Assembly: GCA_035629865.1 (NCBI GenBank)
Contig: DASPHC010000055.1
Span: 70,940-134,939, forward strand
Direction: 5' to 3'
Length of the DNA: 64,000 nt
Origin: Thermoanaerobaculia bacterium
Lineage (GTDB): Bacteria > Acidobacteriota > Thermoanaerobaculia > Gp7-AA8
The position numbers and the translations under genes are program-made. Positions 5,246-60,835 of this stretch are shown piece by piece (positions within the stretch are counted from its first letter, which is position 1; every line of letters starts with the position of its first letter). The notes under the pieces are model-generated. The model was not told the origin of the DNA. It saw only the letters and a program-made list of their open reading frames with translations, and did no database searches.

Positions 5246-5319
5246 CAGGAGCGGTCGGGGGCATTCTACCCCGGGGAAAGGCAGAGGTCAGAAGGCAGAA
5301 GGCAGAAGGGAAGGCATGC

Positions 5320-5460
5320 CGCGGAGCTGGGGTCAGAGCTTCGTTTCGCGCGGAACAGAAGAACGAAGGTGTGACCCCAAGCGACGGGGCCGGCGGTTCC
5401 TCGGAGGGGTCAGAGCTTCGTTTTTCTCTCAGGAACAGCAGAACGAAGGTCTGACCCCTT
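5320..5460. repeat. REP-like palindromic elements (GGGGTCAGAGCTTCG / CGAAGGTCTGACCCC family), 2-3 copies in a divergent intergenic region
   Basis: Direct reading: ggggtcagagcttcgtttcgcg...cgaaggtgtgacccc and ggggtcagagcttcgtttttctc...cgaaggtctgacccc. Confidence 0.8.
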
Positions 5461-5559
5461 GACAGCCCCACTTCTGCCTTCTGCCCTCTGCCTTTCCCAC
5501 GTGGTCAATTCGCTGACCCTTTAGACACCTTTGGTGGGTTATATTCTCACCCCGCCATC

Positions 5560-15850: not shown

Positions 15851-17080
15851 ATGCCGGCTGAGCAGGTGACGAAGAGCGAGGCGGAATCGATCGACAGTCT
15901 TGCCGCGGAGGCCCAGCGCCGCAGCCCGCGCGATGCAGCCGCGCTCCTGTCCTCGAGCGCGGACCGGGTGGCCGCGGAGGTGTTGCAGTCGCTCAATCCG
16001 GCCGTCGCGCAGGACATCCTCGACGAGCTGCCGGCGGACCGGCGGGGGGCCGTCCTCAACGCCGCCTCGCCGCAGCAGCGCGCGCAATGGCTGCGCAATG
16101 ACCGCTACCCCGAAGAGACCATCGGGCGTCTCATGGAGCCGCCGGCGGCGGTCTTCCGGCGCACGCAGACGATCGCCGAAACGATCGACGCCGTGCGCGA
16201 GCTCTCCAAGACCTCGCTGGTGACGTACGGATTCATCGTGGACGATGCCGGCCGGCTCTGCGGCATCGTCACCATGCGCGACCTGCTCCTCTCTCCGCAC
16301 GAGCAGCGTCTCGAGTCGGTGATGCTGCGCGATCCGTTCTTCCTGGTCCCGGAGATGGAGCTGCCGGAGGCGATGAAGCAGGTCGTGCGCCGTCACTTTC
16401 CGGTCTACCCGGTCTGCGAGGCGGACGGCACGCTGATCGGCCAGGTGCGCGGGCAGTCGATGTTCGAGGAGCAGGCGTACGAGATCAGCGCCCAGGCCGG
16501 CCGCATGGTCGGTGTCGACAAGGAGGAGCGGCTGACGACGCCGTGGGCGCGCAGCCTCCGTTTCCGGCACCCATGGCTGCAACTGAACCTGCTCACGGCG
16601 TTCATCGCGGCGGCGGTGGTCGGTCTCTTCCAGGACACGATCGACCGCATCGTCATCCTCGCGGCGTTCCTGCCGGTGCTGGCCGGGCAGTCGGGCAACA
16701 CCGGCTGTCAGGCGCTCGCCGTCGCACTGCGCGGCATGACTCTCGGCGAGCTGCAGCCCGGCAAGGAACGGGCGCTCGTGATGAAGGAGGGATTTCTCGG
16801 TCTCCTGAACGGCATGCTGGTCGGCCTCACCGCCGCCCTCGGCATGTACATCGCCGCCCGCGCGCAATCGCACCCGGCAGCGCTGACGCTCGCCGCCATC
16901 GTCTTCTGCGCGATGATCGGCAGTTGCGTCGTCAGCGGCATCGCCGGCGCCCTCATCCCCCTCACCCTCCGCCGCCTCGGCGCTGACCCCGCCACCGCCT
17001 CCAGCATCTTCCTCACCACGGCGACGGACGTGGCGAGCATGGGATTGTTTCTGACTCTGGCGACGCTGCTGGTGCGTTAG
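15851..17080 (+). CDS. mgtE: Magnesium transporter MgtE
   Basis: MgtE N-domain, tandem CBS domains, C-terminal TM region with GNTGCQALAV; RBS gcaggggaggcggaATG. Confidence 0.85.
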   Translation: MPAEQVTKSEAESIDSLAAEAQRRSPRDAAALLSSSADRVAAEVLQSLNPAVAQDILDELPADRRGAVLNAASPQQRAQWLRNDRYPEETIGRLMEPPAAVFRRTQTIAETIDAVRELSKTSLVTYGFIVDDAGRLCGIVTMRDLLLSPHEQRLESVMLRDPFFLVPEMELPEAMKQVVRRHFPVYPVCEADGTLIGQVRGQSMFEEQAYEISAQAGRMVGVDKEERLTTPWARSLRFRHPWLQLNLLTAFIAAAVVGLFQDTIDRIVILAAFLPVLAGQSGNTGCQALAVALRGMTLGELQPGKERALVMKEGFLGLLNGMLVGLTAALGMYIAARAQSHPAALTLAAIVFCAMIGSCVVSGIAGALIPLTLRRLGADPATASSIFLTTATDVASMGLFLTLATLLVR

Positions 17081-17084
17081 GGGC

Positions 17085-17200
17085 CAATGGGAGCTATGGG
17101 ACCTATGGGACAAATATGGGGTGAGCTGCCTCGTTTCATTCGTCCTATCGTCCCATAGGTCCTATTGGTCCCATTCGTCCTATCGGTCCCACATGCGTCC
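17085..17200. repeat. Cluster of short palindromes (GTCCTATAGGAC / GGACCAATAGGAC family) immediately after the mgtE stop
   Basis: Sequence reads ...gggacctatgggacaaatatgggg...gtcctatcgtcccataggtcctattggtcccattcgtcctatcggtccc. The same family recurs at 54175-54265. Confidence 0.7.
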
Positions 17201-18926
17201 GGCGGCATTGCCCGGCTATGATCCGCGGCTCATGCCTCATTACCTCCTGAGCTGGGGAGCTCCGAGCCACCGGCTGTTCGACATCACCATCCGTTTCACG
17301 GCTCCGGCCGACACACCGCGGCTGCTGCTGCCGGCGTGGCGGCCGGGGCGGTATCTGATCCAGAACTATGCGGCGAATGTGCGGGAGTGGTCCGCGGGCG
17401 ACGCGGCGGTCTGGAAGGACGGGCTGACCTCCTGGCGCGTCGATGCGCGGGCCGGGGAGGAGGTGACGTTCCGGTATCGCTATTACGCCGGGGTGCTGGA
17501 CGCGGGCTCGAGTTTTCTGGACGAGGGGGAGGCGTATTTCAACGGGTCGAATCTCTTCATGATGGTCGAGGGGCTGCGCGGGGAGGAGCATCTGCTGACG
17601 ATTGCCGCGCCGATGGACTGGTTGATCGAGACGCAGTTGCCGCGGGAGGACGGGCAGACGTTCCGCGCGCGCGATTTCGACCATCTCATCGACTCGCCCA
17701 CGATCGCTTCGGCGGCTCTGACGCGGCACTCGTTCCGGGAAGGGGACGCGCGGGTGCACCTCGTGTTTCAGGACGCCGGCGGGATCGACGCCGAGGGGTT
17801 CGTGGAGCCGGTGCGGGCGATCGTGAGGACGCAGGGGGAGTTGTTCGGCGGGCTGCCGTTCAGTGACTACCGTTTTCTCTATCACGTGCGCGACCGGTGG
17901 CATGGGGTGGAGCACGAGGATTCCTGCTCGGTCACGCTTCGCCGCGACGAGTTGCTGGGGGCGCGGCCGGGGAGCGACGGGTTCGACCGGTTTTTCTCGA
18001 TCACTGCGCACGAGTTTTTCCATGTCTGGATGGTGAAGCGGATCGTTCCGGCGGCGTTCACGCCGTACGACTACTGGCAGGCCACGCCGACGCGCCTGCT
18101 GTGGGTGATGGAAGGAGTCACGTCGTACTACGGCGAGAGGACGCTCGTGATGGGCGGGCTCTGGACGGTCGAGCGCTATCTGAAGCATCTCGCGACGGAG
18201 ATCCGGACGTTCGAGGGGCTGCCGGCGCGCGAGCATCTGTCGCTGGCGCAGGCGAGCTTCGACGGGTGGCTGAGCGATCCGGCGCAGATGCACGATTACG
18301 GTAATGCCTGGTTCTCGTTCTACAACAAGGGCGAGATCGTGGCGACGCTGCTCGACCTGACCATCCGCCGCGCGACCGAGGGGGCGCGATCGCTCGACGA
18401 CGTCATGCGCCTCCTGTGGGAGGAGTACGGCCAGAGCCGCCGCGGACTCGAGGAGGACGGCTTCGAGCGCGCGGTGTCGCGCGTCGCGGACGTGGGCGAC
18501 TTCTTCGTCCGCTATGTCGAGGGGACGGAGCCGCTGCCGTACGAGGAATTGTTCGCGGCGGCCGGTGTTGCATTCGCGTCCACGCCGCGCGATCCGGAAG
18601 CTTCAGCGCTCGGCGCGAGACTGAAGGCGGATGGCGGCAGGCTGGTGGTCGAAAGCGCCATCCGTGGCGGCGCAGCGATGGACGCCGGGTTGCTGCCGGG
18701 CGACGAGCTGCTGGCGCTCGGCGAGACGCGGACCGGCACCGAGGCGGCGCTGACCGCGGCGTTGCGCGCTTTGAGAATCGGCGAGTCGGTGGGAATGCTG
18801 ATCGCGCGGGCGGGTGTGATCCGGCGGCTGTCGCTGGAAGCCCGGCCCGATCCGCGGCCGGTGGTGTCGCTGCAGTTGACCGGACCGAATGAACTGCGGC
18901 GGGGATGGCTCAGGAGCGAGGAATGA
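17193..18926 (+). CDS. M61 family glycyl aminopeptidase-like zinc metallopeptidase with C-terminal PDZ domain
   Basis: HExxH motif HEFFHVWMVKRI; C-terminal PDZ-like GARLKADGGRLVVESAIRGGAAMDAGLLPGDELLALG. The start is uncertain: 17121, 17193 and 17232 are all possible, and the first lies inside the palindromic repeat. Confidence 0.7.
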   Translation: MRPAALPGYDPRLMPHYLLSWGAPSHRLFDITIRFTAPADTPRLLLPAWRPGRYLIQNYAANVREWSAGDAAVWKDGLTSWRVDARAGEEVTFRYRYYAGVLDAGSSFLDEGEAYFNGSNLFMMVEGLRGEEHLLTIAAPMDWLIETQLPREDGQTFRARDFDHLIDSPTIASAALTRHSFREGDARVHLVFQDAGGIDAEGFVEPVRAIVRTQGELFGGLPFSDYRFLYHVRDRWHGVEHEDSCSVTLRRDELLGARPGSDGFDRFFSITAHEFFHVWMVKRIVPAAFTPYDYWQATPTRLLWVMEGVTSYYGERTLVMGGLWTVERYLKHLATEIRTFEGLPAREHLSLAQASFDGWLSDPAQMHDYGNAWFSFYNKGEIVATLLDLTIRRATEGARSLDDVMRLLWEEYGQSRRGLEEDGFERAVSRVADVGDFFVRYVEGTEPLPYEELFAAAGVAFASTPRDPEASALGARLKADGGRLVVESAIRGGAAMDAGLLPGDELLALGETRTGTEAALTAALRALRIGESVGMLIARAGVIRRLSLEARPDPRPVVSLQLTGPNELRRGWLRSEE

Positions 18927-19390
18927 CAGAGACGCGAGCGGTCGAGATGACCGAGGACCGGATCCCGCTGGAAGGGATCGAAGAAACGATCGAAGAGCTG
19001 GTGGACCTCTTCGGCGGCAACATCACCGCCGAGCGCGATCGCGCCCGCGACTTCATCCTCCCGCTACGCCGCGGCATCGCCACCGGCGGTGGAGTGGAGT
19101 GCACCGTCTCCTGGGCACCCGCCGCCGAAGGCGACGGCACGGTGACCATGACCTGCAACCGCGACGTCGACGCCCCCAAAACCCAGCGCATCCTCCTCCT
19201 CGCCGCCGGTGTCATCGGCGCAGTGATGTTCATGCTCTGGCCCTTCTTCCCCCACGAAAAGGAGTACGGAACCCTGGCCTGGCTCGGCGGCGCAGTCGCC
19301 ATTGCCGTCTACCTCATGACCCTCCGAAAAACCAGCGGCGGCATCGCCCACGACTTCCTCCAGCGCCTGGCGACGCGACAACGCGCGTAA
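18923..19390 (+). CDS. Hypothetical membrane protein (155 aa), translationally coupled (ATGA overlap) to the M61 peptidase gene
   Basis: ORF with two predicted TM helices (ILLLAAGVIGAVMFMLW, LAWLGGAVAIAVYLM); no recognisable catalytic motifs. Confidence 0.4.
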   Translation: MTETRAVEMTEDRIPLEGIEETIEELVDLFGGNITAERDRARDFILPLRRGIATGGGVECTVSWAPAAEGDGTVTMTCNRDVDAPKTQRILLLAAGVIGAVMFMLWPFFPHEKEYGTLAWLGGAVAIAVYLMTLRKTSGGIAHDFLQRLATRQRA

Positions 19391-19700
19391 ACCCTTGGGG
19401 TCAAAGCTTCGCTCTTTCGCATTGCTGAGAAAATAGCGCGTAACGCTTGGGGTCAGAGCTTCGCTCTTTTGCATTCCCAGCTTATTTAGGGTCAGAGCTT
19501 TGTTCTTTCGCATTCCCGAGAAAATGAAAGCTCTGACCCCATTGGGGCCGGACGAGCCTGGGGCGGCAGAGCTTCGTTTTTCGCATTTCTGACGAAAAGC
19601 AACGCTCTGGCCTCCTTGTGTAAGGCCGGAACGGTTGTGGAGAAACGGACGGGCACTCGCTGCGGTGAGCAAAGCGACGCCGATTTACGCCGCCTCGTAC
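19385..19700. repeat. Array of at least four REP-like palindromes (GGGGTCAGAGCTT(C/T)G family) in alternating orientation (REPIN-like doublets), downstream of the RAYT pseudogene
   Basis: ggggtcaaagcttcgctctttcgc..., ggggtcagagcttcgctcttttgc..., gggtcagagctttgttctttcgcattcccgagaaaatgaaagctctgacccc, and others. Confidence 0.85.
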
Positions 19701-19774
19701 GGGCGGGGGCGATGAAGAAGGTTTTCTGCTTCGCGGCGAGACGTTAGGGAGGCCGATTCGTCAAATGGGAGATG

Positions 19775-20832
19775 TCACGCGCGAAAAACGGCTGTTGCGG
19801 CGTCGAGGTGAGCGAGTAGTCCACCGCTGCCGGAGAGCTCGCGCTCGAATCTTCGGATGAGCGTCGAGATGTAGCCTTCACTTCGAAGCCGGAGGCCGGC
19901 GGCGATGCCGCGCAGCGTGAGCAGGCCCTCATGCCAGCCGAGCCACGCCGCGAGCCTGCGAAGCGCTCCACCGTTTCTCGAGCGAAGCGTGTCGGGCGAG
20001 ACTTTCGCGACGTGCGCGACGGCTTCGACAACGGCGGCCATTTTCGGGCGGCCGACTGCTCGCTGCACGACCGGCGTGTCGGTCGAACGCGGTTTGGACT
20101 CAACGATCTCGCGCATGGCGCGGGTCCAGCTTTCCGTACCGAGGTAAATCGCATGGGTGACCTGGTCCCAAAGGCACTCTTCCGACCCGATCCTGGCGTC
20201 CACGAACGAACGATAGGAGGCATACCGGTCGGCTTCGCCGGTGCCAAAAATTGCGAGTGCGGCGGTGAGATCGAACCAGTCGGGAGCCTTCTCGAGTCCG
20301 GCTGTGGCGCGATAGCTCGACCAGCGATAGTTCTCCGGCCGCTCCACCATGTTCGCGCGTACCGGGTTGAGTACGACGTAGCGGAGCACCTCCGCGAAGT
20401 AGAACTCCTTCTCGACCAGGACATTGTGGAAGCGTCCCTGAAAGAGATGCCCCGACCGGCGATGAGCTTTGTTGAACCATGCAGCGTATTTCCCATTCAG
20501 CCATTGCATGCCACGCGAGAGATTCGGCTGCGGTGTCTGGACGACGAGATGGAAGTGATTGGACATCAGCACCCAGGCGGTAACGGACCAGCCGAACCGT
20601 TTTACCGCTTTGCCGAGAACGAGAGGAATGCCTCTCGATCCTTGTTCGAGCGGAAGATGTCTCGCTGCTCGTTGCCGCGGGAGGTGACGTGGTGAAGAGC
20701 GTCTGCGTGATCGATGCGAAGTTGGCGTGCCATAACGCCACCGAGGATCCCTCGGCGCTTTTCGCATTCCGAGGAGTTCTTCGACTCGTAGACGAATGAC
20801 CCGCAGAACTCCTCGGATTGGAAACGGATCAC
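19775..20832 (-). pseudogene. REP-associated tyrosine transposase (RAYT, IS200/IS605-like HuH Y1 transposase) with C-terminal DnaA-C-like HTH extension; frameshifted near 20605-20612
   Basis: The N-terminal part (RIDHADALHHVTSRGNEQRDIFRSNKDREAFL) lies in ORF 20602..20832. The HuH motif LMSNHFHLVV and the catalytic-Tyr region NPVRANMVERPENYRWSSY lie in the other frame (19775..20836). The C-terminal 150 aa resemble a DnaA C-terminal HTH. REP elements flank both sides. Confidence 0.7.
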
Positions 20833-20879
20833 GCACCCATGTCTACGAACGGTAGAACGGCGTTCGCCAGTTCCTCGTC

Positions 20880-21000
20880 GAAGGGGTCAAAGCTTCGCTC
20901 TTTCGTGAGCCGTAAGAAAGCCAAAGCTCTGACCCCATACATACGGGGGTCAGAGCTTCGTTTTTTCGTTGGCTGCCGAAGATCAAAGCTCTGACCCCAG
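20880..21000. repeat. REP-like palindrome doublet (same family) upstream of the RAYT pseudogene
   Basis: ggggtcaaagcttcgctctttcgtgagccgtaagaaagccaaagctctgacccc and ggggtcagagcttcgttttttcgttggctgccgaagatcaaagctctgacccc. Confidence 0.85.
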
Positions 21001-21044
21001 GTGCCGGGGCGCCGGCGTGACCGCCGGCGCCCGTTCTCGGGAAT

Positions 21045-22160
21045 CTAGTTCAGCTCCAGCGTCACTCTTCCGGCGACGCCCATCGGGTCGAGGCCGAGGA
21101 GGCGGGCGTCGAGGAAGAGGTCTTCGGGGCGGGTGGTGCCGAGGTGGGAGAGGGGGATCTCGAGGGAAAGGGACGTTGCGCCGCGGTCGAGGGTGCGGAC
21201 GGCCTCGCCCCAGGCCACGCCGTTGCGGGCGCCGTCGGCGAGGATGACGTCGAAACGGTACGTGCCGGCGATGGCGACGTCGGCGGGGAGGCTGACGCGG
21301 AGGACGTCACCAATCACTTCGGTCGTCACTTTGCCGAGCCGCGCGGAGCCGCGCTCGGCGACCAGCTCGCCCGAGCCGGTACGGAGGAAGCGGGCGCCTT
21401 TGGCGCTCTTTCCGTCCGCTTCGAAACGGATCTGCCACGCGCCGGCAGTCTGCTCCGGCAGGTCGGCCACGGTCGCCGAGTAGACGCCGGGGGCGACCTC
21501 AGCGAGCGGCACGGAGGCGAAGGCCTTGCCGTTCGGCGAGGCGAGGCGGGCGGTGACGGTGGCGCCTTCGATCGCCGTATCGCCGTCGCGCAGCTCGGCG
21601 TGCAGCGTCACCGGCTCACCCGGCTGGCGGGAAAGCGGCGCGGCCCAGGTCGCGAAAGTGACCGGGCTGTCCGGCTCGGCGGCGATCACCGTCACGCCGT
21701 CGATATCCTGCGGCAGGTCGAGCTCGAGCTGGTAGCTGGCCGCGGCCGTGCGCATGACGTGCAACACTTCCTGTGCACCCGGCGCGGTAACGCCGAGCTC
21801 CGAGGTCTCGGCCGGATCGAGCTGGAAACGGCGCAGTCCGCGCTCGACCGAGCCGCGCTCGTTCGGCTGCAGCACGGCCCCGGTCGGGGTGACGAGGCGC
21901 GCCGCGACGGACGACGTGCCGTTGCCGCGATGGGCGGGGATCGTCCAGATGATCATGCCGCTGTCGCCGGCGGCCGGGATCTCGACCTTCGCGTTAGCGG
22001 CAGTGCGGGGAATCGAGCGGGCGAACATCCGCGAGATGTTGGCCGGCGCGTGTGCGGCCGGTTCTTCGTACTTCGTCCCGGCGTCGAACCGGCCCGTCAC
22101 GTCACCGGCGAAAGCGGCCGGCGCGAGGGTGAGGAGCAGTGCCAATGCGTTCTTCTTCAT
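21045..22160 (-). CDS. Secreted hypothetical protein (signal peptide; Ala/Gly-rich beta-rich domains)
   Basis: N-terminal MKKNALALLLTLAPAAFAG signal peptide; no catalytic motif recognised. Confidence 0.5.
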   Translation of the reverse strand: MKKNALALLLTLAPAAFAGDVTGRFDAGTKYEEPAAHAPANISRMFARSIPRTAANAKVEIPAAGDSGMIIWTIPAHRGNGTSSVAARLVTPTGAVLQPNERGSVERGLRRFQLDPAETSELGVTAPGAQEVLHVMRTAAASYQLELDLPQDIDGVTVIAAEPDSPVTFATWAAPLSRQPGEPVTLHAELRDGDTAIEGATVTARLASPNGKAFASVPLAEVAPGVYSATVADLPEQTAGAWQIRFEADGKSAKGARFLRTGSGELVAERGSARLGKVTTEVIGDVLRVSLPADVAIAGTYRFDVILADGARNGVAWGEAVRTLDRGATSLSLEIPLSHLGTTRPEDLFLDARLLGLDPMGVAGRVTLELN

Positions 22161-22170
22161 GGTCGTCTCC

Positions 22171-22995
22171 TCAGAAGTCGGTCGCCAGCGAGTCGCCGAT
22201 CTTGCGATAGTCGTTGCGGCGGTTGTGGTGATGGTTGGCCAGGGTGGTGAACCAGACGACGCCGACGCCCTGGGCGCTGTACTGCGAGACCATCCCGTCG
22301 TCCTCGCCCGGCATGCCGGCGACGCCGGAAAGTGTCGCCAGGCCTGTATCCTCGGCGTGGATGAAGTCGTTCCAGAGGCCGGTCCCGGCGATGTTGTAGA
22401 CCGTCTTCGGAAGTGCGGGACGCCCGGAAGTACCCTTGAGGTAGTAGGTGTTGTAGTAGCTCATCGAGCTGGTGGTGCAGTTCTTCGTCGAGTCGTTGTT
22501 CTGCCCGACGAGGTCGACCAGCCAGCCGGTGAGCCACGAGCCGGAGAGCGTCCCGGCCAGGTTCGCCGCCTCGGAGCCCTTATTGGGAGGGGCGATGGAG
22601 TTCACCCAGCGGATGCGGTTGATGATCGGCTGATAGCGGGTGTCGTAGGTCGGGTTCGACATGATCCAACGGATGACCACGCCGCCGAACGAATGCGTCT
22701 CGATGACGATGTCGTCGATCGCGTTCGCGTTCATCCAGTTGTAGATCTGGCCGGCCACCGTGCCGCCCGCGACCCACATGTACTGCGTGCCGTCGTACGC
22801 GCAGATGAGGTAGGGGATGGTGAATCCCTTCGTCGTCGCCCGAATCATGTCCTCGCCCCAGTACGCCCGGGCGACGCTTTGCTGGGCGAGGTTCGAACCG
22901 CCCTTGCCGTGGATGAAAACGACGCCGGTCTTCGCGTAAGCCGACGTGGTGAGAAGTACGGCGATCGCCGCTGTGAGCAAGCCCCTTCGAATCAT
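22171..22995 (-). CDS. Secreted alpha/beta-hydrolase, lipase/esterase-like
   Basis: Signal peptide (LLTAAIAVLLTTSAYA), oxyanion region VVFIHGKGGS, nucleophile elbow THSFGG (GxSxG). Confidence 0.6.
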   Translation of the reverse strand: MIRRGLLTAAIAVLLTTSAYAKTGVVFIHGKGGSNLAQQSVARAYWGEDMIRATTKGFTIPYLICAYDGTQYMWVAGGTVAGQIYNWMNANAIDDIVIETHSFGGVVIRWIMSNPTYDTRYQPIINRIRWVNSIAPPNKGSEAANLAGTLSGSWLTGWLVDLVGQNNDSTKNCTTSSMSYYNTYYLKGTSGRPALPKTVYNIAGTGLWNDFIHAEDTGLATLSGVAGMPGEDDGMVSQYSAQGVGVVWFTTLANHHHNRRNDYRKIGDSLATDF

Positions 22996-23129
22996 TGCGT
23001 CCTGCCTCCTGATGGCGGAGCACTACTTCAACGAGGATGCCGCACGAGTTTTCAATGAGTTACGTGGTCAGAGGGTCCGCGATTGAACCTATTGACGGAT
23101 GAATGATGGTTCAATGTTGACCGGCGGGT

Positions 23130-25142
23130 CTATTTTTGGTCCGTGTCGCAGCTCGGGACGAAGTAAAGCCGGATGGATTTCCCTACCCGACGTCGCGACG
23201 AGTGATTTTTCAGCCAGGCGAGTGAGCCGTGGTGTTTCTCGATCCAGGACATTTCGCTGATCGCGATCCAGCCAGTGACGCAGCGTGCGGGGATCTTCTC
23301 GGCGTGAGGCAGGCGCTGTTTCCATCCGGTCGAGCCCCAGTAGTCGACGTAGAGCGGCGAGAGGTTTTCGGTTTCGGCAACGGCAGCGAGGCGGAGGAGA
23401 TCCTGCCCCCAGTCGAGATTGCTGTCGGCGGCGACGCGCTCGGGATGTCTGCCCGCGACTTCGTTGAACCAGGCGAGGTAATCGGGGTGGGCGAGCGTCG
23501 TTCCGGCGAAAAACCAGACCAGCAGAGCCGCGACCGTGACTCTCGCCGCCTTGCCTCGATGCCACAGCCAGACCACCGCGACCGCGGCGGCGAGGGCCAG
23601 GAAGGGATAGAGGGGGAGGATGTGCCGGACGCCGATGTTGATCCTGCTGGTCATCGCGACGGCGAGCATGGCCAGAGGGATGAGGGCAAGGGCGAGGTTC
23701 TCGGGAGTACTCCCGGTCTGTAGTTTCTTCGCGGTGCGAGTTGCTGGTTGCTGGTTGCCTGTGATTCCGGGTCTTGGCCGGGCCCCGAGCAGCAGGCCGC
23801 CCACCATCGCCAGCGCCAGGAACGCCAGCGGTGTCTTGTAGAAGAGGATGACCGGAAAGTAATACCACCAGCCGGTATTGCGGGACTCGCCGAAGAGGTA
23901 GGCGGGATGGCCGACGGCGGAGTGGCGGCGGACGTACTCGGCGCCGGCAATGTACGACGGAGCGAGGATCGGGATGTGGGTGGCGATCCACTGGAGGGAG
24001 GCCCGGAACGGCTCGGCGACTCGCTGGCTGAGCGTCGGTTTCGGGACCGGCGGCGCTCCGGCGAGCGTGTTTCCCTTGCGACCGGCGAGAGGCGATGGGT
24101 AACCGGCCGCTTTGGCCCAATCGACGAAGTCGATGCCGGCGATCCCGTGCTTTCGCTCTACCTCGCCGGCGAAGTCGTAGTAGCGGTCGAGCAGGTCGGG
24201 GCGTACCCACTCGTAGCCCGGCTCGCGCGCGTACCTGGCGGCGATGTGCTGGGGAGCTTCGCCGTCGAAGGTATCGAGGCGGACGCTGTTCAGCAAGCCG
24301 GTCTCGCCGCGGTAGGCGAGCCAGATCAAGAGGATAGCCACGATTCCGGCGGCCAGAAAACGAACGACGAAGGGGTCACACCTTCGTTCTTTGATGTCGG
24401 GGTCAGAGCTTCGCTCTTTCGCCCCGATGGGGTCAGAGCTTTGTTTTTCCGCCGGCGAGGAAAGAACGAAGGTGTGACCCCTTCGGAGCAGGAAGAGCGA
24501 AGCTCTGACCCCAAGGAGGACGAGGAAGCCGGCGCCGAAGAAGATCAGGAAGGAGAATTTGCCGAGGAGGCCGGCGCCGAGGGCGAGGCCGAAGAGGAGG
24601 GTGTGCTTCCAGTTGGGCTGCTCCAGCCAAAGGGCGAAGGTGAACAGTGCGGCGGCGGTGCCGGCGGCGGCCGCCATGTCGGTGGTGGTCAGGCCGGCGT
24701 GGGCAAGGACCGGCGGGAGTGCGCCGAAGAGGGCGGCGGCGATGACGCCCGCGAGATCGCCGGCCAGCCTGCGGGTCCAGAGGAAGACGATCGCCAGCGC
24801 CAGGAGGAAGAAGGGGAGGTTGCCGGCGCGGGCGGCGGTGAGGTTGCGGGGATACTCTTCGTTGCGCTCGAGAAGCTGGTTGCCTCGCGCGGCGCGGCTG
24901 AGGCTCCGGTCGATCTCCGCGCCATCGAGCCAGGCGTCGATGGCGAAAAATATCCGGGCCAGCGGCGGATGTTCGCGATCGAGCGTGTACCGCCCCTCAT
25001 CCAGCCATTGGAAGCCGGCGGCAACGTGAATCGGCTCGTCGATGGTCTGGCTGAAGAGCGTCCAGGTCGACGCAATCCGGATTACTGGCACCAGGACCAG
25101 GACCGCGAGCACGATCGCAAGCCGCCGCCTCGTCATCTGCAT
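23130..25142 (-). CDS. Polytopic membrane glycosyltransferase, GT39/PMT_2 (ArnT-like) family, carrying an in-frame insertion of REP elements in a loop
   Basis: About 12 TM helices. TM1 followed by a loop with the DE motif (TIDEPIHVAAGFQWL...EHPPLARIFF). Start chosen at MQMTRRRLAIVLAVLV. Positions 24355-24525 (REP family) translate in-frame as ...SSPAEKQSSDPIGAKERSSDPDIKERRCDP... Confidence 0.5.
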   Translation of the reverse strand: MQMTRRRLAIVLAVLVLVPVIRIASTWTLFSQTIDEPIHVAAGFQWLDEGRYTLDREHPPLARIFFAIDAWLDGAEIDRSLSRAARGNQLLERNEEYPRNLTAARAGNLPFFLLALAIVFLWTRRLAGDLAGVIAAALFGALPPVLAHAGLTTTDMAAAAGTAAALFTFALWLEQPNWKHTLLFGLALGAGLLGKFSFLIFFGAGFLVLLGVRASLFLLRRGHTFVLSSPAEKQSSDPIGAKERSSDPDIKERRCDPFVVRFLAAGIVAILLIWLAYRGETGLLNSVRLDTFDGEAPQHIAARYAREPGYEWVRPDLLDRYYDFAGEVERKHGIAGIDFVDWAKAAGYPSPLAGRKGNTLAGAPPVPKPTLSQRVAEPFRASLQWIATHIPILAPSYIAGAEYVRRHSAVGHPAYLFGESRNTGWWYYFPVILFYKTPLAFLALAMVGGLLLGARPRPGITGNQQPATRTAKKLQTGSTPENLALALIPLAMLAVAMTSRINIGVRHILPLYPFLALAAAVAVVWLWHRGKAARVTVAALLVWFFAGTTLAHPDYLAWFNEVAGRHPERVAADSNLDWGQDLLRLAAVAETENLSPLYVDYWGSTGWKQRLPHAEKIPARCVTGWIAISEMSWIEKHHGSLAWLKNHSSRRRVGKSIRLYFVPSCDTDQK
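24355..24525. repeat. REP-like palindromes embedded in-frame inside the GT39-like gene
   Basis: ggggtcacaccttcgttctttg...ggggtcagagcttcgctctttcgcc...ggggtcagagctttgtttttcc...cgaaggtgtgacccc...agcgaagctctgacccc. Confidence 0.8.
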
Positions 25143-26749
25143 TCCGGAATGGAGTAGAGCCGCAGGGAGGCGCCGATCCGGCGCACCGGCTGGTGCGCGT
25201 CGAGCCATGCATACGCCTGCGGCTCCTCGGCAATCTTCTTCATCTCGCTCAGCACCACCCAGCCGGTCACACACTGGCCGAGCGGCAGCGGCCGGGCGTG
25301 CGGGATGTGCACGCCCGGATCGGCCCAGCCGAAATACGCAAGATGGATCGGGGCGAGGCGCTCCCGTTCGACCACGCCGGCGAGCCGGTAAAGGTCCTGT
25401 CCCCAGTCGAGGTTGCTGTCGGAGGCGATCCGCTCCGGATGCCTGCCGGCCATCTCATTGAAATAGCTAAGGTAATCGGGATGGGCGAGGGCCGTGGCGA
25501 CGAAGAGCCAGCCCGCCAGCGTCACCGAGAGCACCTGTCCGGTACGGCTGCCTTTCCACCCCCAGACCACTGCCACGGCCGCTGCCATCGCCAGGAGCGG
25601 ATAGATCGGGAGCAGGTGCCGGACGCCGATGTTGATCCGGCTCGTCATCGCCATGCCCAGCATCGCCACGGGGATGAGAGCCAGATCCCAACGTCCCAGC
25701 CGCGCGAGTATCACCATCCCCGTCCCGGCGAGCAGCAGGAAGGCGATCGGCGTCTTGAAGAAGAGGATGACCGGAAAGTAATACCACCAGCCCCCCTGCC
25801 GAATCTCGCCGAAGAGGAAGGCCCGGTGATCTCCGCCGGAGTGGTCCGCCAGATACTGCAACCCGCTGAAGTAGCCTGTTACGTTGAACTTATAGAGAGC
25901 GATGACCATCAGGACGGTGGCCGTAGCAGCGACGCCGAGCTGGATGGGGTCACACCTTCGTTCTTTCATCGTGATGGGGTCAGAGCTTCGTTTTTCTGTT
26001 TTGGCGAAAAAAGCAAAGCTCTGACCCCGGCGCGACCGCGAAGAACGAAGGTCTGACCCCAAATCGACCGAAGAACGAAGGTCTGACCCCAAGTCGCCCC
26101 CGGGCGAAGAACGAAGGTGTGACCCCAGGAGAACGAGTGCCCCGACGCCAAAGTAGGCGATGAACGAGAATTTCGACGCCATCCCGACCGTGAGCGCAAG
26201 GCTGAGGACGGCGGCCCGGCTCCACCGCGGCTCGTCGAGCCAGCGGGAGAAGGCGTAGAGCGCGGCTGCGACGGTCGCGGTGGCGGCCATGTCCGTCGTC
26301 GCCAGGCCGGCATGGGCGAGGGTGGGGGGGAGGGCGCCGAAGAGGGCGACGGCGAGAAGGGCCGTGCCGGTCCCGGCCACCCAGCGGGTCCAGAGGAAAA
26401 CGATCGCCATCGCCAGGAGGAACCAGGGGAGGTTCGCCACTCTGGCTGCTGTTACGTTGCGGACGACGTGGGCGTCGCGGTAGACGATCGGCGCGCCCTG
26501 CTGGACCGGCGCGAGGGCCGGGTCGAGCCGCGTTCCCGCCAGCCAGGCATCGAGCGCGAAGCCGATGCGCGCGAGCGGCGGGTGCTCCGGGTCGACGCGA
26601 TACGAGTCCTGCGTCAGCCACTCCAGGCCGGCGGCGATGTGATACGGCTCGTCGGCGGTCAGGCTGAAGACGGGATAGGTCGCCGCAATGCGCGCGATCG
26701 CGACCAGGGTCAGGATCGCGAGCAGTGCGGCGACACGTCCACGGGACAT
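25133..26749 (-). CDS. Paralogous GT39/PMT_2-like membrane glycosyltransferase, also with in-frame REP insertions at the equivalent loop
   Basis: The N-terminus MSRGRVAALLAILTLVAIARIAATYPVFSLTADEPYHIAAGLEWL...EHPPLARIGF parallels the downstream paralogue. Positions 25960-26135 translate in-frame as ...DLRSSRSRRGQSFAFFAKTEKRSSDPITMKERRCDP... The gene overlaps the next by 10 bp. Confidence 0.5.
   Translation of the reverse strand: MSRGRVAALLAILTLVAIARIAATYPVFSLTADEPYHIAAGLEWLTQDSYRVDPEHPPLARIGFALDAWLAGTRLDPALAPVQQGAPIVYRDAHVVRNVTAARVANLPWFLLAMAIVFLWTRWVAGTGTALLAVALFGALPPTLAHAGLATTDMAATATVAAALYAFSRWLDEPRWSRAAVLSLALTVGMASKFSFIAYFGVGALVLLGSHLRSSPGGDLGSDLRSSVDLGSDLRSSRSRRGQSFAFFAKTEKRSSDPITMKERRCDPIQLGVAATATVLMVIALYKFNVTGYFSGLQYLADHSGGDHRAFLFGEIRQGGWWYYFPVILFFKTPIAFLLLAGTGMVILARLGRWDLALIPVAMLGMAMTSRINIGVRHLLPIYPLLAMAAAVAVVWGWKGSRTGQVLSVTLAGWLFVATALAHPDYLSYFNEMAGRHPERIASDSNLDWGQDLYRLAGVVERERLAPIHLAYFGWADPGVHIPHARPLPLGQCVTGWVVLSEMKKIAEEPQAYAWLDAHQPVRRIGASLRLYSIPECR
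25960..26135. repeat. REP-like palindromes (4-5 copies) embedded in-frame inside the second GT39-like gene
   Basis: ggggtcacaccttcg..., ggggtcagagcttcgtttttctg...caaagctctgacccc, cgaaggtctgacccc x2, cgaaggtgtgacccc. Confidence 0.8.
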
Positions 26750-48779: not shown

Positions 48780-49145
48780 TGGGGGGAGGGCCGAGGGCCC
48801 CGGAGACAGGGCCGAGGGCCGAGGGCCGAGGGCCGAGGGGAAGCAAGATAGCCGCCGGAGGCGGCGATAGATCTGTAGGCCCGCCCTTCAGGGCGGGTTT
48901 GCGCGGATCGGGGAGCGGCGAGTCCGCGTAGCGGGCGACAGAACAGGGACTCGCGTGAATCCTATCCTGTCGCCCGCTTCGCGGGCTTGCCTTGGCGGGC
49001 CGCGTGGTGCCCGGCCTGAAGGCCGGGCCTACAGATCTTTCGCCGCCTTCGGCGGCTGGGGCACGATCGCACCATCCGATCTGGCGTCGATGGCGATCCT
49101 CGTTTCCGGCCCTCAGCCCTCGGCCCTCGGCCCTCGGCCCTGTCT
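48780..49145. repeat. Composite element between dnaG and mutS2: flanking GGGCCGAGGGCCGAGGGCCGAGG / inverted arrays enclosing a ~230-bp MITE-like core with ~45-bp TIRs (GCCGCCGGAGGCGGCGATAGATCTGTAGGCCCGCCCTTCAGGGCGGG ... CCCGGCCTGAAGGCCGGGCCTACAGATCTTTCGCCGCCTTCGGCGGC)
   Basis: Direct reading. The core contains internal inverted repeats (CGGGCGACAGAACAGGGACTCGCG ... GTCGCCCGCTTCGCGGGC). A second core copy lies at 60550-60740. Confidence 0.8.
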
Positions 49146-54265: not shown

Positions 54266-54874
54266 GAGTAACCCTTCCACCCTGGCGATGATCGCGTTGA
54301 TGGCCACGAGGTTCTCTCCCCCCTCGGGGATGATCAGGTCGGCGTAGCGTTTCGACGGCTCGACGAACTCTTCGTGCATGGGGCGAACGGTGGTGACGTA
54401 CTGCTCGATCACCGACTCGACGCTCCGGCCGCGGCTTTTGATGTCGCGGACGAGGCGGCGCATGAAGCGGATGTCGGAGGGGGTGTCGACGAACAGCTTG
54501 ATGTCGATGCGTTTGCGGAGCTCGGGCTCGGCGAGGACGAGAATGCCTTCGACGATGATGACTTTCCGCGGCTCGACGCGCTGGGTCTCGGTCTTGCGCG
54601 AGTGGGTGGCGAAGTCGTAGCGCGGGACTTCGACAGCCGCTCCTTTGGTGAGGACGTCGAGGTGGCGCACCAGCAGCTCGGTCTCGAGGGAGTCGGGGTG
54701 GTCGAAGTTGATGTGGTGGCGTTCTTCGGGGGTCAGGGCCTCGAAGTTCCGGTAGTAGGAGTCGTGCGAGATCCATTCGATGCGGTCGCTGCCGACCCGG
54801 TCGTAGATGGAGCGCGCCACGGTGGTCTTGCCCGACCCGGTGCCGCCTGCGATGCCGACGATGACTGATTTCAT
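54260..54874 (-). CDS. udk: Uridine kinase
   Basis: P-loop GIAGGTGSGKTT, conserved uridine-kinase regions (IIPEGGEN, VEPSKRYADLIIP-like). Confidence 0.9.
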   Translation of the reverse strand: MKSVIVGIAGGTGSGKTTVARSIYDRVGSDRIEWISHDSYYRNFEALTPEERHHINFDHPDSLETELLVRHLDVLTKGAAVEVPRYDFATHSRKTETQRVEPRKVIIVEGILVLAEPELRKRIDIKLFVDTPSDIRFMRRLVRDIKSRGRSVESVIEQYVTTVRPMHEEFVEPSKRYADLIIPEGGENLVAINAIIARVEGLLA

Positions 54875-59750: not shown

Positions 59751-59807
59751 TTCCAGTAGAAACCGCGGACGGCGTATCGCGCCGCCGTAGGCGGCGGAAG
59801 ATCTGTT

Positions 59808-60546
59808 AGGGGTAGGAGGAGGCCTCCCGGCCTCCCCCTCCCTCCGAACCGGACTGGCGGATCTCCCGCATCCGGCTCTCCAGGGGTGGATGCGATGGCA
59901 GATGTGTACACGTGGGACTTGCGTCACGGTGAAAGAAGTCTGACGTGCTGACTCACTGCTGAGTCACTCTGTCACCAGAGCCCATCTACATCGGTCGATC
60001 AGCGCCCCGGCGGGTGCGAGCACGAATTCGCCTGCTCGCAGCTCTCGCGTTTCTAGCCTTTCGGCAATTGGCGATTCCCCGTCTTGACGTTGCCTTCCGA
60101 TTCCACCTCCCTGCCTCCCTTTGCTCCACGCCCGTTACAGCGCTTCTCAGCTCCTATGGAGGCTCAGTCACCCGTCTGCCTTTCACTTGCGCAGCTGCGG
60201 GGATCCCCGATTCACGTCACCTGAATCTTCCTGTCGTTCTGTCTCCAACCACCCCGTGCCTTCCCATGTCCGCTTTCTCCATGCTCGGTTAACTTTCGCG
60301 TTCTGGGTTCGTCACCGTAGAGCCGTTTCCCGTCAGCGCTCATCGGTTTCCAAGGCTTCGCCTCTGCCTAGCAGGCTCGCCAAGACACAAGGCCGAATCG
60401 AGTTTCTAGTCGTACGGACCGACAGGCTCGCCTTCCGTTGCTCTCCACCCCGTCTTACGACGACGCAGTTTCGGTCGGCTTTCAACCAGTCGAGCATTTG
60501 GTTGAGAGTGTTCTCACCTCCTCTTTCAGGTGCGCTTTCGAGCGCA
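59808..60546 (-). ncRNA. ORF-less group II intron (~740 nt), inserted into the left terminal inverted repeat of a MITE copy
   Basis: Minus-strand 5' end GUGCGCUCGAAAGCGCACC (GUGYG) begins immediately after MITE sequence (+ strand 60541-60546 gcgcac). Domain V at 59846-59878 reads GAGCCGGAUGCGGGAGAUCCGCCAGUCCGGUUC (consensus GAGCCGUAUGCGAUGAAAGUCGCACGUACGGUUC), with the AGC triad and a GNRA loop. Domain VI-like hairpin GGAGGCC-GGGA-GGCCUCC with a bulged A follows. The region has lower GC (~55%) and no protein-like ORFs. MITE TIR halves flank it at 59785-59807 and 60547-60570. Confidence 0.65.
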
Positions 60547-60740
60547 CTAAGCCCGCCCTTCAGGGCGGGTATCGTGCGGCCCCCATGAAGGCGAGTCCGC
60601 GAAGCGGGCGACAGAACAGGGACACGCGAAAACCTACGCTGTCGCCCGCTTCGCGGACTTGCCTCGTCTCCTCGACCTTTACCCGGCCTGAAGGCCGGGC
60701 CTACAGATCTTTTGCCGCCTACGGCGGCGGCGGATCGTTC
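60547..60740. repeat. Second copy of the ~230-bp MITE-like core, whose left TIR is interrupted by the group II intron (the outer TIR half lies at 59785-59807)
   Basis: taagcccgcccttcagggcggg...gagtccgcgaagcgggcgacagaacagggacacgcg...gtcgcccgcttcgcggacttgcc...ccggcctgaaggccgggcctacagatcttttgccgcctacggcggc. Compare 48853-49085. Confidence 0.75.
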
Positions 60741-60835
60741 CTGCGAGGCCTCCAGGCGATTTCTTCACAGCTTCTGAGACATCGTCCCCCGGGCTTGCGC
60801 TGCTGCCGGGCCGGCTTCTTGCTACCATCCGCGCC

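Follow-up and report, generated by a model that had tools for sequence, protein, structure and literature searches.

A 64-kb stretch of DNA from a Thermoanaerobaculia bacterium of the Acidobacteriota (contig DASPHC010000055.1, positions 70,940 to 134,939; analysed in full and called the window from here on) contains a gene for a HUH/Y1 transposase that is bracketed by hairpin-forming repeats. We conclude that this locus is very probably a TIRtron, that is, a TIRYT gene (TnpA-Y1 subclass 2.1, or Group 1 of the RAYTs, the tyrosine transposases associated with repetitive extragenic palindromes, REPs) together with its cognate inverted repeats of the GGGGWSAS type, and we include in this judgement both the mechanism proposed below and a recent inactivation of the gene; the class assignment is made on architecture and repeat consensus. 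TIRtrons and TIRYTs are defined, in the sections of the founding study that introduce them, as RAYT-like genes flanked by terminal inverted repeats (TIRs) that share GGGGWSAS at similar distances (Di Nocera, De Gregorio and Rocco 2013, BMC Genomics 14:522; PMC3733652). The same study finds such TIRs in other parts of genomes as well, at times amplified into dimers and clusters. In all features tested, the window locus agrees with this class: its repeats are of the GGGGWSAS type, form hairpins only as inverted pairs and lack the GTAG tag of REPs. The original prediction of a REP/RAYT module therefore stands as regards a Y1 gene of the RAYT type accompanied by repeats in inverted doublets, and is revised as regards the repeats, which are GGGGWSAS TIRs and not GTAG REPs.

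The transposase gene and its interruption

The gene lies on the reverse strand at 19775-20733 and encodes 319 amino acids (aa) once a single-nucleotide deletion is repaired. In the list of open reading frames (ORFs) it appears as two overlapping reverse-strand ORFs, 19775-20836 and 20602-20832, which together make up one gene: MARQLRIDHADALHHVTSRGNEQRDIFRSNKDREAFLSFSAKR is read in the N-terminal frame up to its stop codon, and the second frame carries on with LVLGKAVKRFGWSVTAWVLMSNHFHLVV. Residues 1-37 of the joined protein map by tblastn to 20733-20623 and residues 38-319 to 20623-19778, and a TGA stop codon follows at 19775-19777. The ATG at 20733 is the true start and gives MARQLRI, in agreement with all homologues, which begin MAR(P/Q)LRI, read FLxFLG across the junction of the window copy, are nearly all exactly 319 aa long and align with the repaired protein without gaps. 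The family is large: phmmer finds 43,845 representative clusters when the limit is E <= 1e-3 and 2,570 when it is E <= 1e-30, and a word-indexed search that scored 8,000 candidates gives at least 6,750 proteins with E <= 1e-3. A tblastn search of the 64-kb window found no second copy of the gene.

The proposal that this is a HUH/Y1 transposase homologue of the REP-associated type was borne out, since the repaired protein matches the Pfam profile Y1_Tnp (the check suggested at the time) with 45.7 bits, above the cutoff of 23, and its best PDB match by profile search is E. coli TnpA-REP (4er8). It scores 79 bits with NCBIfam NF047646 (REP_Tyr_transpos, cutoff 80) and 16 bits with NF033573 (transpos_IS200, cutoff 55), and by these profiles appears clearly nearer to RAYT than to IS200 transposases. 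An AlphaFold model of the repaired protein (predicted local distance difference test score, pLDDT, 82) likewise has 4er8_A as its top Foldseek match (E 2.5e-6, template modelling score, TM, of 0.75 on the target), with the IS200, IS608 and ISDra2 transposases ranking behind it. The HUH motif is H60-F-H62 in MSNHFHLVV (20549-20557, reverse strand), two histidines in invariant columns that align with the HMH of TnpA-REP (H59/H61 of 4er8 in the HMMER alignment), and the predicted catalytic tyrosine is Y119 in RYVVLNPVR (20378-20380, reverse strand), which aligns with Y115 of TnpA-REP. Both NHFHL and Y119-VVL-NP are invariant across the homologue alignment. Published work on E. coli TnpA-REP assigns catalysis to Y115 and the HUH motif to H59/H61 (PMC3479197), and the Y---NP arrangement is given as the signature of class 2 in the relevant part of a later classification (PMC6006769). 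The catalytic tyrosine had previously been sought in YRWSSY; on the alignment this is instead a conserved extension motif downstream of the core and not the catalytic site.

The C-terminal residues 225-319 (19778-20062, reverse strand) had been described as a DnaA-C-like helix-turn-helix (HTH), a description that holds for the predicted fold and fails in the Pfam comparison proposed to check it. Modelled alone with AF2 (pLDDT 85), this segment has DnaA DNA-binding domains as all of its top 9 Foldseek matches in the PDB (3pvp, 1j1v, 8btg, 1l8q, 3r8f, 2hcb); three isolated domain-IV chains reach a TM of 0.80-0.82 with a root-mean-square deviation of 2.2-2.4 A over 93-94 columns, full-length DnaA chains a query-normalised TM of 0.65-0.74, and the next-best folds stay below 0.4. 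Because the Pfam profile Bac_DnaA_C (PF08299) gave no match at E <= 10 in the repaired protein or in 16 homologues, and because hhalign returned a probability of 0.5% for the C-terminal alignment against an approximate query of E. coli DnaA domain IV, the similarity to DnaA appears to be one of modelled fold that is invisible by sequence. No DnaA-box-like motif (TTATNCACA) is conserved in the flanks of the gene, where the conserved motifs are GGGGTCA and CCGAGG.

The frameshift noted earlier is present, although it differs in position and in size from the first description. Comparison with L002, which at 79% aa identity is the nearest relative with an intact gene, places it at codon 38/39, where one base is missing at 20617-20623 and not at 20605-20612 (TCG TT- CTC GGC in the window against AGG TTT CTC GAG in L002; deletion context TCGTT(C/T)CTCGGC at about 20617-20623). 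The stop codon of the N-terminal frame at 20602-20604 is a consequence of this upstream deletion, and with translation starting at the ATG of 20733, the N-terminal piece cut off comprises 37 codons and not 76. The annotated remnant (P0001) has 263 aa, starts at M57 and is missing three elements of the predicted core (strands 12-19 and 50-56, and helix 30-47), so that activity of this remnant is, judging from the model, unlikely. All family-invariant residues are kept in the window copy, and any inactivation would thus be recent.

Three explanations had been offered for the interruption, namely an inactivated gene, a sequencing error and a programmed frameshift, and the sequence comparisons favour the first, the window copy being most likely a recently inactivated gene. 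The identical second assembly and the unshifted homologues are what point this way. A Logan assembly of SRR6958552 (L001, 7366 bp) reproduces window positions 16504-23869 at 100% identity with the deletion included, so that the deletion is not peculiar to a single assembler. That the break is a sequencing or assembly artefact, the gene being intact and active in the organism, would agree with there being a single lesion, with the retention of every invariant residue, with a repaired length of exactly 319 aa and with the origin of the sequence from a metagenome-assembled genome (MAG); against the identity of the Logan assembly, a site that is not a long homopolymer and the decay that is common in this family, this explanation seems to us unlikely, if far from negligible. 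Decay is called common here because one relative carries a frameshift of its own at about residue 213 (L054:3635-3642) and several other members are truncated. A programmed -1 ribosomal frameshift or transcriptional slippage is very unlikely, to the point of hardly deserving weight: a -1 shift at CUC-UCG would give back the full protein, but neither a slippery heptamer (X XXY YYZ) nor a homopolymer is found at the site, and uninterrupted 319-aa ORFs are found in the closest relatives, at 82% and 79% identity, and in over 100 further homologues, with no frameshift seen at the same position.

The repeats and their association with the gene

When the whole window was scanned for GGGGTCAGAGCTTCG with up to two mismatches, the GGGGTCASASCTTCG repeat family gave 25 matches against 0.28 expected, a number that none of 100 shuffles reached. 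The repeat unit is about 20 nt long (GGGGTCASASCTTCGYTYTT) and occurs in two subtypes, AGAGC/AAAGC and ACACC/AGACC, which differ by G/C swaps at two stem positions. Contrary to the earlier description of the repeats as palindromes, single units, which start with GGGGTCA and have no 5' GTAG, are not self-complementary, and hairpins arise only from inverted pairs. In these pairs the units lie 38-40 nt apart from start to start (with a second mode at 30 nt) and form hairpins of 54-58 nt, or of 50-57 nt for a spacing of roughly 38 nt, that fold as single-stranded DNA (ssDNA) with z-scores of -3.2 to -7.1. The inverted-doublet organisation that had been suggested as a check was thus found: two inverted units and a short spacer make one long hairpin in many copies, which is the organisation of a REPIN (a REP doublet forming a hairpin).

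Repeat arrays do lie on both sides of the gene, as first reported. The upstream array (20883-20998) consists of two hairpin doublets (20883-20936 and 20946-20998), and the downstream array (19397-19614) of direct copies at 19397, 19449 and 19488, an inverted partner at 19526 and a degenerate doublet at 19562-19614; the gene-flanking copies, nine or ten in number, are all of the AGAGC/AAAGC subtype. A third, intergenic array at 5329-5458 holds two doublets in which an AGAGC arm is paired with an ACACC or AGACC arm, and this array is itself bracketed by short inverted simple repeats, GGCAGAAGGCAGAAGG and CTTCTGCCTTCTGCC (5280-5310 and 5465-5495). The remaining two are nested arrays of five copies (24372-24512, folding as one compound hairpin of -50.8 kcal/mol, z -9.4) and six copies (25946-26126). 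Dispersal to at least six places had been proposed; the family is indeed dispersed, in five real clusters, and the sixth site is a solitary two-mismatch match at 54729 that is probably due to chance.

Nor are all clusters extragenic, as the two nested arrays lie within coding sequence. They are found in tandem paralogous genes for GT39/PMT_2 glycosyltransferases on the reverse strand (23130-25142 and 25133-26749), each of which contains one array of five or six units, in frame and at the same protein loop, directly after KFSF..FG.G.LVLLG. The encoded peptides include GSDLRSS, EKRSSDP and KERRCDP. The phase of G+C at third codon positions (GC3) is equal on either side of each array, no stop codons occur, the ORF at 25133-26749 is annotated by NCBI as one protein of 538 aa (P0121), and GT39 homologues are without the array segment. 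The repeats are thus in two cases translated as part of membrane glycosyltransferases.

The association between repeat and gene was followed in a genome scan that comprised 80 loci, of which L004-L063 (n=60) come mainly from Thermoanaerobaculia or other Acidobacteriota. About 55 of these 60 loci carry the repeat motif, most commonly with a forward copy some 130-190 nt (up to about 380 nt) upstream of the gene and a reverse copy some 170-290 nt (up to about 450 nt) downstream, and the best flanking inverted repeat is the motif itself (GGGGTCAG / GGGGTCAC) in about 26 of the 34 loci tested. As to whether the repeats are commoner near the gene than elsewhere, the answer is yes: in the 33 of these loci that have full 3-kb flanks, motif density is 5.1/kb beside the genes and 0.8/kb in the outer flanks. 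The repeat subtype also tracks the protein clade, being TGCCAGGCC in L004/L010/L011/L045, GGCCAGACC in L020/L055, GGTCACATC in L046/L053 and GGTCAGAGC in the clade of the window copy, L002 and L007. The window holds one copy of the gene, whereas the expectation of a single RAYT locus per genome is not borne out in related genomes, which have 2-5 diverged paralogues each (five in one MAG, two in the complete 6.6-Mb chromosome OY970284); in Thermoanaerobaculia genomes these paralogues share the layout of repeat and leader.

Several relatives preserve arrangements that suggest past movement of whole units. At L019:3001-3300 and L040:3001-3330 a complete repeat-leader-gene unit abuts a truncated TIRYT gene, and at L014:4185-4367 a 3' piece of the gene is found beyond the downstream repeat, the break lying at the codons for W-H/N-EGLVT, where the DNA (GAAGGTCTGGTCAC) resembles the repeat. 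Three relatives with orthologous neighbours (an MG2-like protein and an M61 peptidase) have neither the gene nor the repeats in 8-13 kb. In a relative, the 'empty' intergenic site (L085:7101-7206) holds a different G+C-rich palindrome, CCCTCACCCTAACCCTCTCCCCGC...GGGGAGAGGGCTAGGGTGAGGG, hinting that the spacer between these convergent genes is also occupied by hairpin repeats of other families.

The same observations bear on two further explanations of the locus. The repeats might be regulatory or structural elements of the host (terminators, mRNA stabilisers or protein-binding sites) that lie near a Y1 gene incidentally, a reading with which the intergenic position of several arrays and the strong hairpins formed by all of them would agree. 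We nevertheless give it only a slim chance, given that the motif flanks most of the 60 loci at broadly similar positions with a 6-fold local enrichment, that its subtype co-varies with the protein clade, that no T-run follows the hairpins and that two arrays sit within coding sequence. The locus might otherwise be a classical domesticated REPIN-RAYT system, in which a single-copy, vertically inherited RAYT keeps REPINs made of GTAG-type REPs. Inverted doublets on both sides of the gene and dispersed elsewhere are what such a system would show, TnpA-REP is the closest solved structure, and the homologues are labelled 'REP element-mobilizing transposase RayT' by JGI. The window repeats, however, have no 5' GTAG and are singly not self-complementary, the relatives hold several diverged paralogues per genome, the long C-terminal HTH is typical of subclass 2.1 and not of 2.2 or 2.5, and the window has a separate, genuine GTAG-tagged REPIN-like element (48875-49032 and 60547-60704) with no cognate gene nearby. 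A domesticated system of this kind is accordingly a minority possibility in our estimate, and the TIRtron remains the reading that we prefer.

The GTAG-tagged element just mentioned is another kind of repeat, about 200 nt long and unrelated to the first, that is present at 48850-49070 and 60548-60778, and also at L002:9368-9629. It is a compound palindrome with inverted GTAG-tagged REP hairpins as its outer arms (GTAG-GCCCGCCC-TTCA-GGGCGGGT and GTAG-GCCCGGCC-TTCA-GGCCGGGC) and a long central hairpin, and by its sequence it is a classical REPIN-like element; no cognate RAYT gene for it was found in the window. One of its copies adjoins a match to the Rfam group II intron (domain V/VI) of 53.6 bits at 59805-59880 on the reverse strand.

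The conserved leader and a proposed mechanism

Between the upstream repeats and the start codon lies a leader that is kept more strongly than much of the protein, even though the paralogues are only 54-80% identical to the window protein (L002-L063). Across 32 paralogues and orthologues, the 110 nt before the ATG contain, in a common order, CTCTAC-N5-6-GTAG, TTTCCATTCCGAGGAG, (GA)TTCCTCGG and CCGAGGGATCCTCGG, and the last of these motifs ends 5-9 nt from the ATG. In the window (all on the reverse strand) the conserved mini-palindrome TCTAC-N5-GTAGA occupies 20842-20856, between the upstream repeat and the leader proper; the leader hairpin TTCCAATCCGAGGAGTTC-loop-GAACTCCTCGGA, an inverted repeat whose 5' arm TTTCCATTCCGAGGAG is nearly invariant across paralogues, occupies 20765-20820; and the palindrome CCGAGGGATCCTCGG, also nearly invariant, lies at 20742-20756, 8 nt upstream of the ATG. 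The window leader folds with a z-score of -4.4, and no Rfam family matched in 19300-21100.

In our reading the protein consists of three parts: a TnpA-REP-like ssDNA nuclease/ligase core with H60/H62 and Y119, a helical linker and a DnaA-domain-IV-like HTH. By homology with TnpA-REP and the IS200/IS605 transposases, the Y1 enzyme would recognise the repeat hairpins on single-stranded DNA, such as the template of the lagging strand, and would then cut and rejoin next to them. Doublets could in this way be mobilised in trans, as could, at least historically, the whole unit of gene and repeats. The hairpins have become dispersed over the genome, both as doublets and as nested arrays, the two in-frame GT39 insertions among them. 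The hairpins and CCGAGG palindromes of the leader would probably serve to keep expression low through an IS200-like occlusion of the GAGG immediately before the start, an analogy that is speculative. Equally speculative is an alternative role as operator for the HTH, for which the nearly invariant CCGAGG palindromes CCGAGGGATCCTCGG / CCGAGGAG are candidate sites. A broader proposal, which we put forward tentatively and hold to be possible rather than probable, is that Group 1 RAYT/TIRYT genes of the Thermoanaerobaculia drive REPIN-like, high-copy doublets that insert into each other and into protein loops, with the DnaA-like tail and the CCGAGG leader autoregulating the nuclease to a low level.

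Several points weigh against the TIRtron reading or the parts attached to it. The match to NF047646 stops 1 bit under its cutoff. Both assemblies that contain the frameshift derive from one shared read set, and a systematic read error at that site is possible. The repeat counts are those of the 64-kb window. When compared with the window protein, the paralogues found together in one genome reach identities of 56-69% and are not near-identical, and for this reason recent transposition of the gene itself is not demonstrated. In an RNAalifold analysis of 32 leaders the predicted stems are near invariant and lack compensatory changes, so that structured RNA, structured ssDNA and a binding site for a protein are not separable. 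Finally, we know of no biochemical evidence for any TIRYT.

Comparison with known systems

Clear examples in this lineage of a RAYT fused to a DnaA-like HTH had been put forward as new, which is not the case: the parts of PMC3733652 devoted to them describe a sharply defined TIRYT group in Acidobacteria, with several diverged genes per genome, for example in Koribacter, and a classification of 2018, in its account of the group, equates TIRYTs with subclass 2.1, corresponding to Bertels Group 1, and assigns them a Bac_DnaA_C-like C-terminus (Quentin et al. 2018, BMC Genomics 19:475; PMC6006769). What is locally new is the amplification of repeats beside a subclass 2.1 gene, the conserved leader and the in-frame GT39 arrays. 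Within the portion concerned, PMC6006769 reports no REP-like sequences near subclass 2.1 genes, and the passages of Bertels et al. 2017 (PMC5581495) on Group 1 describe it as exceeding the other RAYT groups in size and in likeness to insertion sequences, its flanking 16-mers numbering only about 12 per replicon. If the proposed mechanism is true, the amplified doublets run contrary to this published view of subclass 2.1 as lacking REP-like partners. The locus extends a poorly studied branch of the RAYTs that is thought to have few or no amplified repeats, with an uncultured class of Acidobacteria as a setting in which TIRYT repeats are clearly amplified, and it supplies defined substrates for in-vitro work on a TIRYT (hairpin doublets, two subtypes and a conserved leader); the general picture of REP/RAYT biology is unchanged.

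An IS200/IS605 insertion sequence was considered and rejected. The TnpA proteins of that family are short (about 130-150 aa), carry Y---Q, are often accompanied by tnpB and occur as near-identical copies. The window protein shares their HUH/Y1 fold and, by analogy, might also use ssDNA ends folded as hairpins and a structured leader by which translation is possibly limited, as in IS200. It differs from them in its 319 aa, in having Y---NP and not Y---Q, in the 16 bits against 55 for transpos_IS200, in the lack of room for tnpB in the flanks of the gene and in its paralogues at 56-69% identity, no near-identical copies having been seen. With E. coli TnpA-REP (YafM; PDB 4er8; PMC3479197, PMC3333891) it has in common the catalytic core, the positions of the HUH motif and tyrosine and the bracketing inverted repeats; the E. 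coli protein, by contrast, has 165 aa, no HTH and a single copy, and each E. coli REP is by itself an imperfect palindrome that carries a GTAG guide at its 5' end (PMC3479197, PMC3333891).

The window locus resembles subclass 2.1(.2) and Group 1 in its Y---NP motif, its long protein with a C-terminal HTH of the Bac_DnaA_C type, its wide and patchy distribution and its few diverged copies per genome; it departs from them as published in that its flanking repeats are clearly amplified and in that its similarity to DnaA_C is one of fold and not of the Pfam profile. No mention of the conserved CCGAGG leader was found in the passages of the TIRtron papers that were consulted. To our knowledge, Thermoanaerobaculia, the host lineage in which the locus differs from published TIRtrons, are known solely from MAGs. 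The locus differs from them further in a much higher repeat density (24 copies in 64 kb), in nested arrays of which two are translated in frame, and in a frameshifted gene copy, while sharing with TIRtrons and TIRYTs the arrangement by which they are recognised, a Y1 gene between GGGGWSAS inverted repeats at a roughly constant distance.

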